A stretch of DNA of 64,000 bases from Octopus vulgaris (Eukaryota): assembly GCA_951406725.2 (NCBI GenBank), contig OX597837.1, forward strand, positions 16,306,001 through 16,370,000, read 5' to 3'. The stretch's first letter is position 1. Every line of letters begins with the position of its first letter. Shown here piece by piece: positions 30,483-54,779 of the stretch. The notes under the pieces are model-generated. The model was not told the DNA's origin. It worked only from the letters and a program-made list of their open reading frames with translations, and searched no databases. The position numbers and the translations under genes are program-made.

Positions 30483-31314
30483 CCTATGTTTTTTTTTTGT
30501 TTTTGTTGTTGTTTTCTTTTCTTTTTTGTTTTGTTTGTTTTTCACACTCACTGAATAAACGTTTCTAAATAACTTTTGAATGGTTGCAAGATAGAAGACA
30601 CAAGTTAGCCATTCAGAAACACACAAAGGATGTTTAACTTCATTTAAACATTTAATGTTTGCAAAATGGTGTCAAAATTTTCATTGCTTGAAACTGCAAC
30701 CTGGTCACTTAGAAAATTTATGCTGTACAAATTTTGTTAGTGACTAAGGTCACAGGATTGAGCAACATAAATTTTGGCTCTATGTTAGTTCTCTGTGTGC
30801 CATGAGGTGCATAAGGCTGCAGCATGATCTCTCCAACCAGCTCTGTTTTCTGCCACTGTCCTCATCTTATTCCAGCTTCTCCATCCTTCTCATTTCCTTT
30901 CCTCATCAATAGTCCTTTGCTATGTGATGTTAGGGTACCCTGCTACTCTTTAACCCTCAGGCTTCCAATTCACATGCCTAAGGAGAATACTCAACAAGTG
31001 GCTGCAAAGAATCCAAAAGGACACAACTGAGATGGGAGCAGGCATCAACAAGATCAGTAATGAAATAAGACACTAGAACTGGATCAGACAAGATCAACAA
31101 ATGATGACACCATTTTACAAACAATAAATTTTTTATGTGAAGTGAATGGTTTTTGTGTTTCTGAACAGCTGATTTGTATCTTTCACAGTGGATTTAGTGT
31201 CAACACATGATCTTGGCTCAAAATACTTACCATACAGACACATTACTGTAACTTTTTAATGTTCTGTGTTAATTTTTAATGCTGACCTGTAAATCTTTTT
31301 TTTTTTTTTTTCAG

Positions 31315-31506
31315 CAATGTTTTGATTGTGGCAGTAACAATCCTACATGGGCCAGTGTAACTTATGGAGTATTCCTGTGTATAGATTGTTCAGCAGTTCA
31401 CAGATCCCTTGGAGTCCATGTTAGCTTTATCCGGTCTTCCCAGCTTGATACCAGCTGGACATGGTTGCAACTGCGTACCATGCAGGTTGGAGGTAATGGA
31501 AATGCG
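31315..31506 (+). CDS. ARFGAP2: ArfGAP2/3 exon: ArfGAP domain zinc finger (CxxC-x16-CxxC-x4-R)
   Basis: Poly-T/CAG acceptor and GTGAGT donor, 192 nt, phase 0-0. Encodes [64 protein letters not shown], the ArfGAP2/3-Glo3 signature. Confidence 0.97.
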
Positions 31507-32208
31507 GTGAGTTGGAGTTTCTGTTTTTAGTAATAATTTATGAAGATTGATGTGTCTCTTCACAAAGGTAAATAAGCAATAAGGAGAGGCTGATGTGATT
31601 TGTAATAGAAATTGACTCTGTTTATTGAACTTCATTTCAACTGATTGTCTGTCTTCCTTGGGTTCAAAATGTACAATTCACTTGCGAAGACCTGTTGAAG
31701 CAAGTGAAATCAAAATCGCTGACGTGGCTGATGACAGTACTGCCTGATTGGCACTTGTGCCAGTGGATTGTTAAAAGCACCATCCAACCGTGATCGTAGG
31801 CAGGTCCACTGACTGGCTCCTGTGCTGATGGCATGTATAAAAGGCACCATTCGTGCATGATCATTGCCAGCGTCACCTTACTGGCACATGAAAAACAACA
31901 ATCGAGCATGGTTGTTGCCAGAACTGCCTGACTGGCCCTCGTGCTAGTGGCACGTAAAAGCACCCACTACACTCTCAGAGTAGTTGACATTAGGAAGGGC
32001 ATCCAGCTGTAGAAACTTTGCCTGATCAGATTGGAGCCTTGTGCAGCCTTCTGGCTCACCAGTCTTCAGTCAACCCATGCCAGCATGGAAAGCGGATGTT
32101 AAACAAATACGATGATGATGATGAAACTCATGAAATACCATTTCGGTACTTACCTTACGTCCTCTGTTGGGAAGATTGTGAGATTTATTTGTTTGTTTAT
32201 TTTGACAG

Positions 32209-42511: not shown

Positions 42512-43198
42512 GTGAGTACTATTCTGTGTGTGTGTTTGTCTATCTTTTGGTCTAACTTTCTTTAATGAATTCAAAGTGCTTCTTAGAGTGTCAAGCAGGT
42601 ACAAGAATGACTGTGTGGTTAAGAAGTTTATTTCAGAACCGTGTGGTTTTGGGTTCAGTTCCATCATGCAGCATCTTAGGCAAGTGTCTCCTACTCTGGC
42701 CCCAAGCCAATCAAACCCTTGTGAGTGGATTTGGTAAACAGAAATTGAAAGAAGCCTCTGTGTTTTTGTGTTTACCCTTGTCTTGGCATCCCAAGGTGGT
42801 TTTAAATGAGTGTTACCATCATACACATAATGTTGTTTGTTTCCAGTCTTCCATGTAAAAATATGTTTGGCCGTGGGGGAAATATCACCTTGCTTGGAAA
42901 CAGGTGAGGATTGATGACACAAAGAGCATTTAACCGTAGAAAATTTGCTTCAAAACATTGTCTGACCCATGCAAGCATGAAAATGTGGACATTAAATGAC
43001 GATGATGATAGTGATCACCTTATTACAGACTTTTATTTACTTCATCACCTCACCATTTTCAAAGAACTTTCTTATTACAGTTTGCTGCATGATTGCGGGG
43101 GTTTAATTTTTTTTTTACCTTTATTTCAATAACAGTAATTTTTGTTTTCTTTTTTCAACTGATTTTTCATTTTTTTTTTTATATATTTGTTTTTACAG

Positions 43199-43366
43199 AG
43201 GGGTCAGTCACTCCATTCTCTCAGACATGACCGTCATCGACCAAGAGACACCAAGTGGCCGGACATCAAATTCCTCTAATTTGGATAGATTTGAAAGCAG
43301 CCAGAGTGGTCGCGACTTTTTTGAGGATGAATTTGACAAGTTAGGAGGCTTTTCTTTAAGCTCTAA
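43199..43366 (+). CDS. ARFGAP2: ArfGAP2/3 exon: VSHS motif
   Basis: TTTTACAG acceptor, GTAATT donor, 168 nt, phase 2-2. Encodes (R)GVSHSILSDMTVIDQETPSGRTSNSSNLDRFESSQSGRDFFEDEFDKLGGFSLSS. Confidence 0.92.
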
Positions 43367-43963
43367 GTAATTTCCATTCTTTTGCTATATATTTCTATAT
43401 TTTTTACACTTTTTTATAAATGTTTAGACTAAGCTATTTTATTGTGTTCTGTGCAACTAGTCCAACTTCAAACCCCACTTCTTTTTTTCTGTTCTTTTTT
43501 TTTAAATTATTAATAAATTTTAGAATAATTACTCTATACCATTTACGGTTTTTAAAGTTCAACTATTGGAAGGCGGGGATCAAATTAATTGTTGATTTGT
43601 GATTTGATTGTAAGCCTCTAACACTTAAACCAGCCTTATCCATTCCAAACATTCTACTTATTTTATGTTCAAATTGGCCAGATCTGGCGTCTTGCAGATC
43701 TGACCCAACAATGTCATTCCAAAATAATCACAGCATCAAAATCTCAAAACTATGAGATAATCCCATAATTAATTCAAAACAATGTGAATAAATAAGCATT
43801 ACATTCAACAGAGTAATCTGAATGCTGAAGGGGTAAATGCAATGTGGTGGTGGGAGGGGGGAGGGTCAGTTTATAACTTGGTCATATAGGGAGCATTAAG
43901 TTCTAATATATAAACTTTAAAAGAATTTAGGTCCCCAAGTGGGCCTTATATTATTGAGGAGTT

Positions 43964-46900
43964 TGTAGTTGTGTGGCAATTTTCAATTTCACTAATACAG
44001 GAGGCTGAAAAGATTGGCCGTAAATGGGCTTTACTCTTCTAAGAGCAAGAGTACAGTATCGGTCAGTAATAGCTTTAGCCATGAACCTGGCTGGTCAGCA
44101 GACAACCATGTTTGAATATCATTTCTAAGCCTTGTTTCCAACTGGCTGTAGTAATATTAACAGTAGTAAATATAACCTGTATAGTTATAGTAATAATATT
44201 AGTACTTGTTACCTTTGCTGAAGAATCTGAGCACTACCAGGTGAATTCATAAAGTTCTTCACCACCAAAATATAACCTGGGGCATTACAATATTCTGGAT
44301 AATTTACGTCTTTTGACTTTGCAAATTGTATTGATGTAGAATGCTGTTGACCAGCCTCTCAGTTTCTCAGGTTTTATGAGAGTAAATGGCTTTTGATTGC
44401 TCAGGATTATCAAGCTTTGAGCTGTTAGCTTCTTCTTCTTCTGGATTGATATTACTGGTTCTGGTTTCAACTCCTGGTGTTTCTGCTTCAAGATCATTCA
44501 CAGGTTCCTGGCTGCATGATGAGATATCAAACCCAGTCGGTCTATCAGAAAATTGAGTGAAACTGAACAGCCTCGCATGAGGCGTCGTGTTAGGGGCTGT
44601 ACCAAGGAAGGAGCGAATCGGGTGCAGAGCATCAAGGAATACGTGCTTTTAGTGACTTGCACTCAATTCCTTGGACTTCGGTGCCAAAGTAATGGTTTTC
44701 CATTAGGTTGAGTTGAGCCTTTCAACATGACCATTCCCTGCTGGATTGTATGCAGTCGTCCAGCTGGTTGCTATGCCTTTATCATGGAGGAATTATTTCA
44801 GTTCAGCTTACATGAAGGCAGCACCACAATTAGAATGAATGAAAGAAGGGAGTCCAAAATCGAAAATAGTTGGCGGAGATAACAAATGACAATAGCAGCT
44901 GATATATCTGAACATGCAAACGCAAACAGAAAGCAAGAAATTTTTTCAATAATTGTGAGTAGATTTGTTGTGATTAGTGGATGGGAGTGGATCCCTTGAA
45001 GTCTACATTTAATCTCTCAAACAGCTGAGTTGCCATCACAAGTTTGGCTGTTGTTGGCACAGAAAATCTAGGCTTCAGTTCAGTGCATGCAGGACATTGA
45101 AATGTTATAGATTTTAGATCAGGAGTGGAAAATGGTTGATTCTTTGACCACATGAAATGGAGCGATCACATCATGCCTGGATGGCACAAGGAAACGTGGA
45201 GCTGTGTAAGGTCCACAGGGGTAGAAGATGCAGCCTTGTTCTCCTTACCCAGCCAATAAATGACATCATATTTGAAACAATACAGCTCAATCCTCCAACA
45301 ACAAAGACAAAGTCAAGAACGGCAAGGTCTTCTGATGAAAGTCAGGGACTGAAGATGAGCTCCAATCAGGTAGGGTTTCCATTTATGAAGAGCTGCTTCA
45401 ATGATGACATAAGCTTCCTTCTCAGCTGAGGACTGGTTCTGTTCACTGCAAGTAAGTGTTCTAGAGAAAAAGGCTACAGGTCTTCCATTCTGGTTCAAGG
45501 CTGCAGCAATAACAATATCAGAAGCATCTGTTTCCACAATCAAAGGTATTTGGTGGTTGACAGTGACCAAAGTAGCGCCTTCAATCTCTGACTTGAAGTT
45601 TTGGAACGACTGTTCAACAACATCAAGGTGTGGGGAAAATCTTATTGTGTGTCAAGGGTGTGATTTCCTCAGAGATCCAGTGAGAATAATAAGCAAATTT
45701 CTATGTTTCTTTCTTGTGCTTTGGCATCTTGAGATGGGAGCTTGCTTAAGCAGTGGAATCATTCTGGATCAGGTCTGATTACCCCTTTGGACACTTTGTA
45801 ACCCAGGAGCATGATAGTCCTGGCAGCAACGACTGTTTTCTTATCATTGAAGATTCGTACAGCCTGTTGGAATCTTTCACAATTCTCATCATGTTTTCTT
45901 CTGTTGCGCCTGCGTATTGTGACACTCTCAACGTAGGTTAAGGTATCCTCTAGTTTTGTTTGCTTGATAAGATTATCAATGATATGTTGAAAAGAAGCTA
46001 TACTATTTGTGACTCCAAACAATATACAATGGAATTGATACAGATTCCCACATACTTCGAATCCTGTAAATTTTTTCTCCTCTTTGCATATAGAGATCTG
46101 ACGATAAACATTCTTAAGATTGAAAGGGTGAATATTTTGTAGCGAGATATTTTCTCAGCCAGTTCATTGATGCATGGTGCAGGGTAGGCATCGAGTTGTG
46201 CATATTGATTGATTGTCTGGTTATAATCAATTACCATTCATCTTTTGTGAGATTCATCACTGGCAACTAAAACTTGCACCCTCCCTGGAGAATGGGATGG
46301 TTCAACGAATTGTTCTGACAAAAGACAGCTGACTTCACTTTTGACAAATTTCTGATCCGGCAATGACAGGTGCCTGGACTTAGTAGCAATAGGTTTGCAA
46401 TGTGGTGAAAGCGACCTGAATTGTGTAGGAGTGTCAACATGTCACAAAGTGAAAATGGAGGTCTGAGACCTCCGAAGGCTGTGTTTACTTGTTCATACTG
46501 TTTCAAAACATCATCCCCAATTAAGACATGTGAGCAAAGCCCAGGTAAAAATGAAAGCTTCACACCGAGGTAATCATTGTCATGAAAGACCAATTTAGCA
46601 AAACAGTGACCTTATGTAACGCTTGACCAGGTAGTAGAGGCCATTGAAATCAGTGTTTGATGGATACACCAACCATGTGAGTGTACCTTATGAGATCATA
46701 CATAACTATCAGAGCTTCCAGTATCAACCAGAGGGTTGAGTTTCACACCATTTATGTACACTTTAAAAACAGCAGAAGATAATGTTGCAGGAAAAGCTGC
46801 AGAGAATATGGCAAACAATGTGGCATTTGAGTATGTAACAAAGTATTTGGTCCTGCATACCCTCTGGAAGTGACCGACTTTGTTGCAGGCTTTACATGTC

Positions 46901-48010
46901 GCTTCCCAGGCTGGGCTCTTGGAATGTGGGTGTTTGTTGTAACAACAGGAAAAAACATTTAGGTATCATGTTTTGGGCTGAGAGGACATGCAGTATAGGA
47001 TTCATTGGGGGACTGACTGACCTTAGGTAACTTGAAGATTGAACCTCTACCATCTCCTGCATCGATACTTGGATAAAGGCCCAATCAAGATGTAGGTTGT
47101 CCTGCTCCAACAACCGTTGGCGTATGCTACTAGAATGCATGCCACTTATGAAGGCATCTCTTACAGCTTTGTTGAGATGTTCAGTAGCCAAAACAGCTTT
47201 GTATCCACAGTCTTTTGCCAAAAGTTTGTGCTTCTGGAGGTATTGATCTAAACTTTGTCCATACTCCTGCTGGCAAGTCTATAACAGGTGATATGCATAC
47301 ACTACATCAGTGGTTCGCGACCTGTAGTCTGTTGACCCCTAGTGGTTCACAAAAGTAGTACTGGGGGTCTGTGAACTAAATTCAAAATTTCATATCTATA
47401 TAAACATAAGGATAACAATATCCTGGGGTCCGTGGGAAAACTCATTTAAATAAAAGGAGTCCTTGCTAATGAAAATTGGGAACCACTGCGCTACATTCTT
47501 TGGTTTCACGTATAGTGAAGTAAGACTGTCAACCGCTCTGGTGTCCATGATGCAGTCCGTGATATATTCGAACACGTCATGGCCAATGGGATTGGTGAGC
47601 CACTGCAATTCATTCTCTTTCACTGCATTGAGTGAGTTTAGGTAGTTGGTAAAAGTAAAATGCTAATGCAGAAAGGTGAGGCTGGGTCAATGTCGAAATG
47701 TTCCAGGTGTAGCACCTTGTCCATTTAGAAGAGTAAATTCCAGTAATGTAGCAATTCTCAGTTTAATTAATACAGGAGGCTGAAAAGATTGGCCGTAAAT
47801 AGGCTTTACTCTTCTAAGAGCAAGAGTACAGTATCGGTCAGTAATAGCTTTAGCCATGAACCTGGCTGGTCAGCTGACAACCATTTTTGAATATCATTTC
47901 TAAGCCTTATTTTCACTCCAAAGCCTCGTTTTCAACTGGCTGTAGTAATATTAACAGTAGTAAATATAACCTGTATAGTTATAGTAATAATATTAGTACT
48001 TGTTACCACA
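43964..48010 (-). mobile_element. Gypsy/Ty3 LTR retrotransposon, decayed, antisense to host gene
   Basis: LTRs at 43964-44213 and 47739-48010 (TG...CA), 5-bp TSD GAGTT/CAGTT. gag MDKVLHLEHFDIDP..RDAFISGM.S..IRQRLLE; RT MVIDYNQTINQYAQLDAYP, FGVTN; RNase H VETDASD..AALNQNGRPVAFFSRTL..EKEA; integrase TTAYNPAGNG.VER. Order gag-RT-RH-IN. Confidence 0.95.
47308..47488. mobile_element. hAT-type MITE nested in the Gypsy gag
   Basis: TIRs CAGTGGTTCGCGA / TTGGGAACCACTG; 8-bp TSD CACTACAT (47300-07) / CGCTACAT (47489-96). Confidence 0.9.
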
Positions 48011-50989
48011 CAGTTTTAACTTACTGCCTCTCCAAGGATATGGGATCTTGGTAGGAGTGAAGCAATTTATTTAAAAGACTCATGAAAAAGTAGATCTTTG
48101 TTTCTATCCATTATTTTGTAGACACAGCAACATTCCTTCTCTTCTGAACCATATGGGATTGGCTTTCCTGTTCTGTTTGAAATAATAATGTGCTTGTTTG
48201 TTTGTTTTAGGTTGGGTGGGGGTAGTACTTTTTATCACCATCACAGAACTGCTTGTATGTTTCAATATGTTCAAAAGGTTTTAGTAAAATATACAGGCTT
48301 CACTATGTGGTGAAGGAGTGTACTTCCCAAGCAGATGCTTTCAGGTTCAGTCCCTCTACATGGCAAGTGACTTCTACTAAAGTCCTGAGCTAAACAAAAC
48401 CTTGTTAGTAAAATTAGTAGATGGAAACTGAAAGAAGCGCATCATATACGTGTGTGTGTGTGTTTTCTTGTCCTGACAGATAGTTGTAAATGAGTGTCAC
48501 TGTCATACAAGCAGTGTTATTCATTTCCAATTTTCTGCAAAAATGTGTGACCATGAGGAAATATTACCTTGAGTGGGAATAGATGGTAGCAGAAAGAGCG
48601 TCCAGTCATAGTTTATTCTGCCTCATTAAATTCTGTCCGGCCTACACAAATATGGAAAAGTGTACGTTAAAAAAAGTGATGTTCACTGCTGTTCATATTA
48701 CAAGGTACCTGATGGGGGAATTTAATCTAAATGTCCCTAAATATAATATAAATATCAACTTGTCTTGTAACAGGCTGACATTAAGGAATTGTTCTGTACC
48801 TGCTCAGTTCACATTAGCCATTAAGAATGGGTGTCAGATCATGTGCAATTGTTACCAGGGGTAGATTAGCATTTTATTTGTGGGAAAAATTATCTCTCAG
48901 TTTGCTTAATTTTGATATGATGCAACTGAAGGCAGACACCGGCCCTTTATGGGCATTTTATGCTTGCAATAATGAATGTATGCAATTTCATTGTTTTAAT
49001 GTAAAGTCTCTACTCCTGGATTTATAAATCTATTTGGCTGATTCATTTTTATAGTTGATTAATTAGTATGAGAGGTGATATTAATTAAGTTGTAAAACTA
49101 TTTCCTCCTGAAAAAATTATGTAGCTGCCTAAATTAAAAAATTTTGAAGCCCTAAATTCCTGATAGTTAAAAAAAAATGTTTTTCATACCAACCCTTTAC
49201 AAAGGAAACATGAATCTCCTTTCCTCTCCCTTACACGATTATCCAGCCTGTCTAGGATGGAGCACAATGAAATTCACACACACACACACATCTATTCATT
49301 CAGTCATCATACTTGCACATGTCCATTCACTGGATGGTTTCAAAACAACAAAAAGGTATCTGCATTATAAAATCCAAATGAATATGTACATCACTGTAAG
49401 TTTAGTTGCTCTCAGAACTAGGAAAAATATGTCATTTTAGACACAGGTTATTCAACAGATGTCTGCTTAAAGGACCTTAGACCAAACTGTAAGATTTTTT
49501 TTCCACTCCTCATACCGATTAAACTTACTGTAATTTTCATCTCTTGGACTGTTGGATTTTTTTACTATTGTTATTGCCAATGCAAGGCTTTTTCCATCTT
49601 CATCAGGTTCCATATTTTAATCCTAAACTACATGATAGACAAAGCTTCATCGTCACCAACACTCACCATTGTTGCCTCTGCCATGACTGTCGCACCTCTA
49701 AAACTGGTTTACTTCATAACAACCTAGATTTAAACCCACTCAATGCACTTCTCTCTCCCCTCCACTTCTTCCTCCGGTTCCTGCCTCTCAGGGATATTTC
49801 ATACCCCAATATATTAGAGACAATGGAAGTGATCTTGGTGCATTAGCATATATATATCTATGAACTGTTTCAGAACCATTACGGTCTCTCGTTAAGTACC
49901 TTGCTTCTCCGAGTTCAACTGCCAGAACCAACTTTGCCTGTTATTTCTTTCAAGGCGTTAGCAACCCACATACCAGTTATATACTTGGGTTAGTTCAGTC
50001 TATAAAATCTTTCTGCCCTTTTTGCAAAGAAAATAAAATAGGTCTTGTGCCTAAAAAAAAAAAAACAAAAAAAAAATGGTCAATGTTGTTCTTTGTTGTT
50101 GTTTGTTTCACTGCTCTGAAATTAGCTTTTTTTTTAATTTAATTTTATTTTCAAGTTTTTAGTTTGATTTAAATATTGATGAGGTAAGGTATAATAATAG
50201 CTGTGAGGTTTAAGTGCTGGACTTCTTGACCACATGTTCATAAGTTCAAACCTTACTTCTGCCATTGTGTTGTGCTCCTTCTATTATTTTGATATTATAG
50301 AGAGAACAAATTCCTCTCCTACTTCCACGTTACATGGTTAGCTGCAGGAAGGGGGTGAGGGTGCCTAGCTTGGAAAAGAAATAGGTAAAAGTTGCAATAT
50401 GGATTAAAACTGGGGAAAAAAGAATCCATCTAGTTCTATTTTATTCACCCCCCCCTTATTTTCATTGCCTGTTTTTCTTGGAAGGTTGCAGGGGTAGAGT
50501 CTTTAGGCACTGCCAACCTTCGTTAAACTTTCCTACCGGATTCTGAACCATTAATGGATATTACCTCTTGGACCTACCTGCTTTGCAGTACAAAGATCTG
50601 CAACCTTTCTGCTTCTGTCTCAGAACAAGGTGTACATTGTGCTGGCTCTTGATGGAAAATGCAATATATTTTTCAAACAAACCCCTCTGTCTTAGGTTCA
50701 AATACATCTCCTGTTAACCTGTGTGACAGACAATGAATAAAAATATCATTTTTAAAAGCTTCTAAACTGCCTTTGTATTTAATTAAGTTTACAAAGCACT
50801 CAGTGTTCCATTAGGACAAACTGTATTTTAATTTTATTGACCTATTTTGAAGAGAGGTAATAGCAGGTAGATGTAGGGATCTCCTCTCTGTTGTAAAAAG
50901 GGAGAACAACTCAAATATTGACATCCTCCACATCTTTCCACTTTGGAGTATAACAGCTGAGGTCCAATATTGCACCAAGTATGACTCAT

Positions 50990-52999: not shown

Positions 53000-53605
53000 C
53001 TTATTAACCATTCATTGATCCCCAGTTTCTGCATCACCCACCAGATAAGGGATCAGGGGACCCTTTCAAAGGCTTTCTCTAAGTCCACAAAAGCCAAGTA
53101 TAGGGGTTTATCTTTGGCTAGGTATTTCTTCTGCAGTTACCATATCAGGAATATAGCATCAGTGGTGCTTCTACCTGGCACAAAACCAAACTACATCTCA
53201 TCTAAGCAGACTCTCTCCCTAATTAGTTGGGCTATGACCCTCTCCATGACCTTCGTCACCTGATCCAGCAGTTTAGTACCCCTGTAGTTATTTCTATCTT
53301 GAGCATCACCTTTACCTTTGTAGCAGTTGGCTATGGTGCTGCTACACCAGTCATTGGGTATGACTCCATCATGAACTACCTGGTTTACAATACAGGTGAC
53401 TAGGCCATAGCCCACTCTACCAAATATTTTAAGCATTTCAGCAGTGATTCCTGATGGGCTTTTCCTGTCTTCATACCCTTAATTGCTTTATCTACCATGG
53501 TGCTGTGTATTTGGATAGCTGGTCCTTCTACTGGGTCAACATTTGGCAGGCTCTCCTCCTCCCATTCATTCTCCACGTTCAGCAGTCTTTCATAATGGCT
53601 TCTCC
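53000..53605 (-). pseudogene. RTE LINE reverse transcriptase fragment
   Basis: WRSHYERLLNVENEW..KAIKGMKTGKA..IPNDWCSSTIANCYKGKGDAQDRNNYRGTKLLDQVTKVMERVI..FGFVPGRSTTDAIF..AFVDLEKAF. Confidence 0.92.
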
Positions 53606-54779
53606 AACTAAAACAATTCCAGTCAATTTCTTCATCAACCATAAGGTTGAGAAAAAGAAGGGACGATACGAGGACAGACAAAACAAACGTTGGGGTCAGG
53701 GTATCAAATGAGATGAAACGTATGAATAAACAAACAATTAAAATATATACAATTAAATGAGAATGAGTGATTTACAAAAAATGAAACGGAGGATGCGGTC
53801 GACCCCAAAATCCACATACTCACACTGAAGACTTTGCTTTCTCCTTTTTATGGCAAAGCAACAGGTAGGAAGAGAGAGAGTGAGAGAGAGAGGTGAAGAC
53901 TTGGTTGTGGACTGACACTTAGTCTGTCTGTCTGTCTGTCTGCCTGCCTCTCTCTAGATATGTGTGTATGTTTGTATGTATATGATTTTGCATGTTGCTG
54001 TTTTGTATTCCTTTCTGACCTTAAACTGCTATTAAAGGCCCAACCACACACACATTTGTTTAAACCCATTTCAACTGCAGCCATACACCAAAGAACCTGG
54101 TGTTTTGCTCCAAAGTTTAAATTTTGAATTTGTTTCCATTATAAAATCACATCTTTCGGCTTCAGAATACAACATTGTCTTTTTCTTTCTATATTTTTGA
54201 AGTTAGAATTTCTGGCTCATTTGTTGATGTCTCGTCATTACACATCCATATTACACCTTTAAGATCAGGGAACCAGTTAGGGGCCTATTGGATCTCTCTC
54301 GGCATACCAGCAAACCACAAAATCGCATCAGCCAGCATCACCAGTGACTCCAAGCCCATCATATACATATATATGTGTGTGTGTGTGTGTGTGTGTATAT
54401 GTCTGTGTTTGTCCCACCACTACCATTGCTTGATAACCGATGTTGGTGCATTTGCATCCCTGTGATTTAGCTGTTCAGCAGAAGAGACTGATAGAATAAG
54501 CACCAGGCTTACAGGGAATATGTCCAGGGGTCAATCTCTTCAACTGAAGGGTGGTGCTCCAGCATGGCCACCGTCAAATGACTGAAACGAGTAAAAGAAT
54601 ACCAGAAAAACGTTCCGTACCACTAAACCAAGAAGGTTCTTTGAATATGTGCGATGTATTCTAAGGTTAAATAGTAATTCCGTTTATGTTTGTGTAACTG
54701 AGATATTTTGGTTGGATTATATTAGTCATTGGTGTTACATTACTTTCTATATTCTATAACTCTCACAATATACTTTTCT

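Follow-up and report, generated by a model that had tools for sequence, protein, structure and literature searches.

A decayed octopus Gypsy element points to probable self-priming in an animal retrotransposon lineage that lacks a chromodomain

A decayed Gypsy element in an apparent ArfGAP intron

The window analysed here, a stretch of 64,000 nucleotides from Octopus vulgaris, contains a decayed Gypsy element at 48010-43964 on the minus strand. The element lies antisense within an apparent intron of an ArfGAP-family gene on the plus strand, which we recognised from a Pfam ArfGap match at 31273-31527 (E 5e-27; gene region 31273-31530) and which has further exons to at least 62300. An exon-like contig piece covers 43198-43369, and the element lies about 600 bp after it. 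Four contig sets cover the element and its flanks evenly, which is what an intron would show and is therefore no sign of element expression. Elsewhere in the window, ORF fragments of a LINE-type reverse transcriptase were noticed by eye in the translation of the minus strand at 53191-53771. The Gypsy element has the following features, in the order in which it is read:

48011..48015, minus strand: target-site duplication, 5' copy, AACTG
47739..48010, minus strand: 5' LTR, 272 bp, starting with TG; its terminal bases are unlike the CA end of sister copies
47848..47853, minus strand: weak TATA-like hexamer CTAAAG, 36 nt upstream of the paired segment and found in many LTRs of the family
47805..47817, minus strand: candidate self-primer, 13 nt, with AGTAAA as its final six bases
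47792..47804, minus strand: stem of GCC, a 7-nt loop, and GGC, beginning at the first base past the predicted primer end
47725..47737, minus strand: putative primer-binding site that complements 47805-47817 exactly, one base past the LTR end, without TGG
44285..47724, minus strand: broken gag-protease-RT-RNase H-integrase region with stops and frameshifts
44214..44220, minus strand: remnant of a polypurine tract, mostly deleted relative to sister copies
43964..44213, minus strand: 3' LTR, first bases missing, CA end; the primer segment recurs here at 44030-44042
43959..43963, minus strand: target-site duplication, 3' copy, AACTC

The paired LTRs, a target-site duplication with 4/5 bases identical, and the gag-protease-RT-RNase H-integrase order of the interior identify this element as a Ty3/Gypsy LTR retrotransposon. 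The copy is dead: its coding region is interrupted by stops and frameshifts, most of the polypurine tract is lost, and the start of the 3' LTR is missing. The two LTRs have a K2P distance of 0.054 over 249 sites, and the U3 region contains a 19-nt unit (47913-47931), of which the 5' LTR has one more than the 3' LTR. The number of these units varies between copies (L004 and L020 were noted), with about a dozen in another copy. The internal region also turns up in contig sets whose runs bear the labels of three other organisms, in two of these sets as pieces of about 3 kb with 18-19 letters different, so the insertion in the window probably predates the split of these organisms.

On the minus strand, the 5' LTR (48010-47739) is followed by a single A (47738), then by TTTACTCTTCTAA (47737-47725), and then immediately by the gag ATG (47724-47722, MDKVL..), which reproduces the layout described in the first-pass annotation of this DNA. 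The reverse complement of TTTACTCTTCTAA is found at 47817-47805 in the 5' LTR and at 44042-44030 in the 3' LTR, as that annotation had also stated, and a loop of 67 nt separates the paired arms. Within the window the 13-nt motif has three matches, compared with 0.17 expected, and none of 100 shuffles attained three. The leader of this copy is predicted to fold modestly better than its shuffles (z -2.27, 3/200); in this fold we saw no convincing duplexes beyond the primer duplex and the stem.

A DNA search of the genome for related copies returned 48 matches from 40 scored candidates. Most of these are solo or 3' LTRs with a CA end at the aligned position, and the LTR boundary, which had earlier been placed from an alignment and the target-site duplication, is now firmer. 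The 5' junction is retained in four further copies (L004, L009, L016, and L025), each of which has the LTR end, an A, the site with at most one change, and the gag start. A pattern search of the genome allowing up to three mismatches gave eight matches (two for a reversed-pattern control), namely the window copy, three of the junction-keeping copies, and four others with three mismatches each. The window family is small and old.

Self-complementarity across families

Searching the genome with gag yielded 73 matches, from which 30 loci were fetched, and added four further clear families, for a total of five in this genome. The sites of these four sister families have only their first bases in common with the window site, and each is complementary to 16-18 nt of its own LTR. 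A sixth type of the same lineage (L056/L096), with clear LTRs, lacks a good complement at the primer position (the best, of 9 nt, lies elsewhere) and is either decayed or an exception to the rule of self-complementarity. A metagenome scan with an alignment of 35 proteins found 439 relatives, 80 of which were kept; the 5' end is present in 32 of these 80 loci, and the 48 without it were set aside. The family set comprises 24 families, five in the genome and 19 in metagenomes.

When the 110 nt before gag were compared with the DNA upstream, the best perfect complement was at least 11 nt long in 36/52 loci (11/20 genome loci and 25/32 metagenome loci), compared with 2/239 control windows placed inside coding regions. 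The other 16 loci are mostly visibly decayed or truncated copies. With one copy taken per family, the site matches the LTR of its own family over at least 10 nt in 18/22 families and that of another family in 16/462 pairings (mean 4.9 nt), counts that are not fully independent because the families are related. Three of the four families below 10 nt pair over 13-16 nt with one mismatch; in the fourth (L148) the test offset was one base off, and the 3' LTR has the full 16-nt complement. With family offsets placed manually, and with LTR-LTR alignments as a guide in families that have both LTRs, the site begins one base past an LTR-type CA in 23/24 families, the exception being the window copy.

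The altered 5' LTR end of the window copy and its imperfect target-site duplication are what might be expected if the match were a chance inverted repeat or the product of a mis-set LTR boundary. However, both the comparison with coding regions and that with the LTRs of other families contradict this idea, and the same position and pairing recur in 24 families of differing sequence. We therefore find an origin by chance or misplacement barely credible.

The complementarity is kept through complete turnover of sequence between families, and compensatory changes can be seen within them. L112 is one of five copies that are 99% alike, and both partners of one base pair are changed in it relative to the four others, which are near-identical; L111/L116 and L033/L034 also differ in step at paired positions. 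The double change in L112 fits selection on the pair or, alternatively, a plus-strand synthesis in which the primer is copied into the site, as we would infer from the proposed reaction.

The absence of a TGG start, which had been noticed for the window site, holds for all families: none of the 24 sites begins with TGG. The lineage is in this respect unlike the tRNA-primed Gypsy clades (CsRN1- and Mag-type), whose site starts with TGG and complements the 3' end of a tRNA. Six elements from other Gypsy clades of the same genome have TGG sites and self-matches of only 5-6 nt. They are the usable part of a control set of 20 loci, in which 12 were without a usable LTR pair or junction and two were set aside: L200 has a 14-nt self-match, but its repeat pair lacks TG..CA ends and was not taken for LTRs, and L208 has TGG six bases past the aligned end.

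A site without TGG could still bind a host tRNA fragment or another small RNA, the LTR match being a by-product, and half-tRNA priming is described for Copia lineages (PMC6317226, accessible text). When the five sites from the genome were compared with 30 host tRNA genes, a partial set that spans six amino-acid types only and so leaves some room for such an RNA, the window site matched over 7 nt at most, and none of the other four matched over more than 5 nt. Against a host RNA stands the fact that five families in one genome have five different sites, each of which matches its own LTR; we consider priming by such an RNA very unlikely.

Two further observations concern the copies themselves. 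In L140 and L171, an LTR followed by the primer site and gag start occurs again at the 3' end, as in tandem or circular forms of the element. A single contig (G000:C31) holds seven or more copies of one family, near-identical and truncated at the 5' end (L046, L047, L049-L052, and L057), whose common flanking DNA suggests segmental amplification rather than transposition.

The predicted primer end and the proposed priming reaction

The paired LTR segment has a poly(A) hexamer as its last six bases in 15/24 families (AATAAA in seven, ATTAAA in seven, and AGTAAA in one); the AGTAAA that ends the window segment is presumably a variant of the poly(A) signal. The other nine families have different terminal hexamers, including CTTTGA and TGAAGA, and retain the duplex. 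Directly past the duplex, RCC is found in 21/24 families, and 20/24 have an RCC...GGY stem of 3-6 bp that starts from the base after the predicted primer end. Among these 20, the first pair of the stem is A-U in eight, G-C in six, and G-U in six. The combined shuffle p of the stem is 3e-8 (single-family p mostly 0.01-0.2), a value to be read with the knowledge that the stem was noticed post hoc, after inspection of the data, and that L093 was substituted for L094, whose sequence breaks the stem. The stem score has its highest mean, 10.0, at offset 0, compared with 6.2-8.5 at other offsets. The stem of the window copy has only 3 bp, with a shuffle p of 0.18 for that copy alone. Both the poly(A) hexamer and the RCC...GGY stem at the predicted primer end are new here.

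The gag start is less regular in its position. In 9/24 families no more than 5 nt separate the duplex from a gag-like ATG; the distance is 13-21 nt in five families and about 60 nt in two, and the remaining eight have a first ATG that does not start gag. An ATG adjoining the primer site is thus a trait of some families only, and the earlier suggestion that translation might be coupled to priming is weak, failing as a rule for the lineage because the two adjoin in so few families. In the sister family L033-L038, a GA microsatellite of variable length separates the primer site from the gag start.

Self-priming without a tRNA, as the first-pass annotation had proposed, is the best reading of the site, given that a tRNA-type site is absent, that the complementarity is conserved, and that compensatory changes occur. 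By analogy with Tf1, transcription would start at the paired LTR segment or a few bases before it, and this segment would fold onto the site beside U5. The element's RNase H would then cut at the 3' edge of the duplex, a cut that the adjoining RCC...GGY stem could help to mark, and the new 3' end would be extended into U5. Since most families have a poly(A) hexamer at the end of this segment, the pairing may at the same time conceal the poly(A) signal of the 5' LTR. No TATA box at a fixed distance was seen by eye across the families, and for this reason we can only infer that the paired segment is the 5' end of the RNA; in the window family, CTAAAG at 47848..47853 might serve as a promoter element. 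Altogether, we estimate a probability of a little under 0.8 that the window element is a dead copy from a chromodomain-less animal Gypsy lineage whose site pairs with its own LTR rather than with a tRNA, and whose active members likely self-prime with their own RNA.

Occlusion of poly(A) signals by RNA structure is known in retroviruses, and the frequent poly(A) hexamer at the end of the paired segment would suit a pairing whose main role is to conceal the signal of the 5' LTR and so guard against premature transcript ends, while another primer is used. However, the duplex is kept in the nine families that have other hexamers, and no other primer site is present. Occlusion also needs no partner exactly one base past the LTR end, which is where the 3' end of a primer must sit. 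We judge it unlikely that concealment is the main role of the pairing.

It is similarly unlikely, in our estimation, that self-priming proceeds from the copy of the segment in the 3' LTR. In such a scheme the tail of the RNA would pair with the site at its front and be cut after the hexamer, and the genome, or its partner in a dimer, would prime in a circle. A working hexamer must sit in the 3' end of every transcript and the segment is present in both LTRs, while transcription of the 5' copy would require a start upstream of it, where no conserved TATA was seen. On the other hand, a weak TATA-like hexamer does lie 36 nt upstream of the segment in the window family, and the proven precedent (Tf1) uses the RNA 5' end. 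A cut near the 3' end would presumably also remove the 3' R that is needed for first-strand transfer, unless a second RNA supplied R. Priming by the RNA 5' end is the form of self-priming that we carry forward.

Placement of the lineage and comparison with known systems

In intact relatives the coding region is a single ORF of about 1200 codons, and for one of them the best PDB match was Ty3 Gag-Pol. Named relatives come from sea cucumber, wax moth, pillbug, and leafhopper; 1613 proteins reached E<=1e-40, not necessarily all of the lineage. None of 35 relatives (25 families listed) matches Pfam Chromo at E<=0.01, and the Tf2-type SH3 domain is absent from all 35 lineage proteins. Two chromodomain-bearing elements from a viral collection served as chromovirus references, and both are positive for the chromodomain and for the Tf2-type SH3 domain. 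One of them, L193, is a Tf1/sushi-type element: this fungal-type chromovirus has a 9-nt self-complementary site two bases past the CA, with a TATA box upstream (L193:1060-1175).

In a tree of RT-RNase H with 18 rows, the 11 lineage rows stood apart from the 7 others at 100/100, and a quick tree of 36 rows agrees with it. An AU test rejected a grouping of the clade with the two chromoviruses (p 0.015) and did not reject one with L193 alone (p 0.058). Because the 18-row tree is unrooted and contains these two chromovirus references and no rows for Tf1, Mag, or Cigr-1, it only suggests that self-priming had an independent origin. Membership in Tf1/sushi was rejected in view of the missing chromodomain and of an RT-RNase H that branches apart from the two chromoviruses sampled. 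The description of the window element as a Tf1-like self-primed Gypsy thus probably stands with respect to mechanism, where the complementarity bears it out, and falls with respect to a Tf1/sushi grouping. The absence of a chromodomain and the separate branching indicate that the lineage likely works like Tf1 without being Tf1/sushi.

The lineage may be the Cigr-1 clade. Cigr-1 of Ciona intestinalis resembles the present lineage in that its LTRs are short and that it has one ORF, which spans 3.6 kb or about 1200 codons. In the accessible part of supplement 3 of PMC6238403, an octopus genome is listed with seven low-copy Cigr-1 families (RepeatMasker class Gypsy-Cigr; 3-45 copies), which resemble the handful of low-copy families found here. 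The text of PMC6238403, in its accessible portion, mentions primer-binding sites nowhere, that of PMC2774666 mentions none of Cigr, primer-binding sites, or self-priming, and a short RT motif of the lineage is not in the readable supplements of PMC6238403 and PMC8556966. Look-ups of protein clusters yielded no informative clade names, ESM Atlas matches carried generic gag names only, and a PDB search with a broken RT piece gave only spurious repeat-protein matches. A single-protein query had no match in viral or metagenome contigs, nor did the alignment in viral contigs; of the motif scans, one gave 0 loci and another a single RT locus among 13.

If the lineage is self-primed, its elements would be independent of host tRNA and presumably beyond the reach of tRNA-fragment silencing, and such elements escape detection by tools for which a tRNA primer site is a prerequisite. 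Since the duplex differs from family to family and the RCC...GGY flank is common to them, the family set also makes a prediction about RNase H recognition. The window copy, being dead, matters only as a witness. We give even odds to a broader proposal, in which self-priming without tRNA arose independently of Tf1/sushi in a large Gypsy lineage found across animals; one duplex would both yield the primer and silence the 5' poly(A) signal, and the place of the cut would be set by the conserved RCC...GGY stem.

For Tf1, self-priming has been proven; its chromovirus relatives and one plant Copia lineage are assumed to use it, and to these a widespread animal lineage can now be added as a probable case. 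In the accessible portions of the open literature (that is, outside subscription journals, Repbase, and GyDB), we found no description of self-priming in the present lineage; the mechanism itself is known, but for these elements it has apparently gone undescribed. In Tf1, the RNA's first 11 bases pair with the primer-binding site, RNase H makes its cut between bases 11 and 12, and the short RNA serves as the primer (PMC7175516, accessible text); two more, flanking duplexes are required (bioRxiv 2022.12.06.519325, accessible text). The same scheme has been proposed for Tj1 of S. japonicus (PMC4600332), and self-priming has been proposed for Tcn1 and the plant TAR Copia elements (PMC6317226), as far as the accessible parts of these papers go. 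The TAR prediction means that the mechanism has already been proposed outside Tf1/sushi. In the TAR lineage of plant Ty1/copia (Houba, Osr-1) and in Tcn1, a complement to the LTR of at least 10 nt lies 0-5 nt past the LTR, which is the same kind of evidence as ours (PMC6317226, accessible text). TAR belongs to a different superfamily, however, Tcn1 is a chromovirus, and their hosts are plants and fungi, unlike those of the present lineage.

The closest parallel is with Tf1/sushi. As far as the accessible sources describe them (PMC7175516, PMC4600332, bioRxiv 2022.12.06.519325), Tf1/Tf2 of S. pombe, Tj1, and the Tf1/sushi chromoviruses share with the present lineage the Ty3/Gypsy domain order, a primer-binding site just past the LTR CA that is complementary to an LTR segment, the lack of a tRNA site, and extra structure beside the duplex. 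The present lineage differs in having neither chromodomain nor Tf2-type SH3 (0/35) and in the separate branching of its RT-RNase H. Its duplex, predicted from sequence, is A/U-rich and 10-19 nt long instead of having 11 nt throughout, with a poly(A) hexamer at its end in most families. Where Tf1 has a pretzel of three duplexes, a single short RCC...GGY stem 3' of the primer is predicted for 20/24 families of the lineage, and it adjoins the primer-binding site in some families only. The animal lineage seems to have reached the same solution as Tf1 on another branch.
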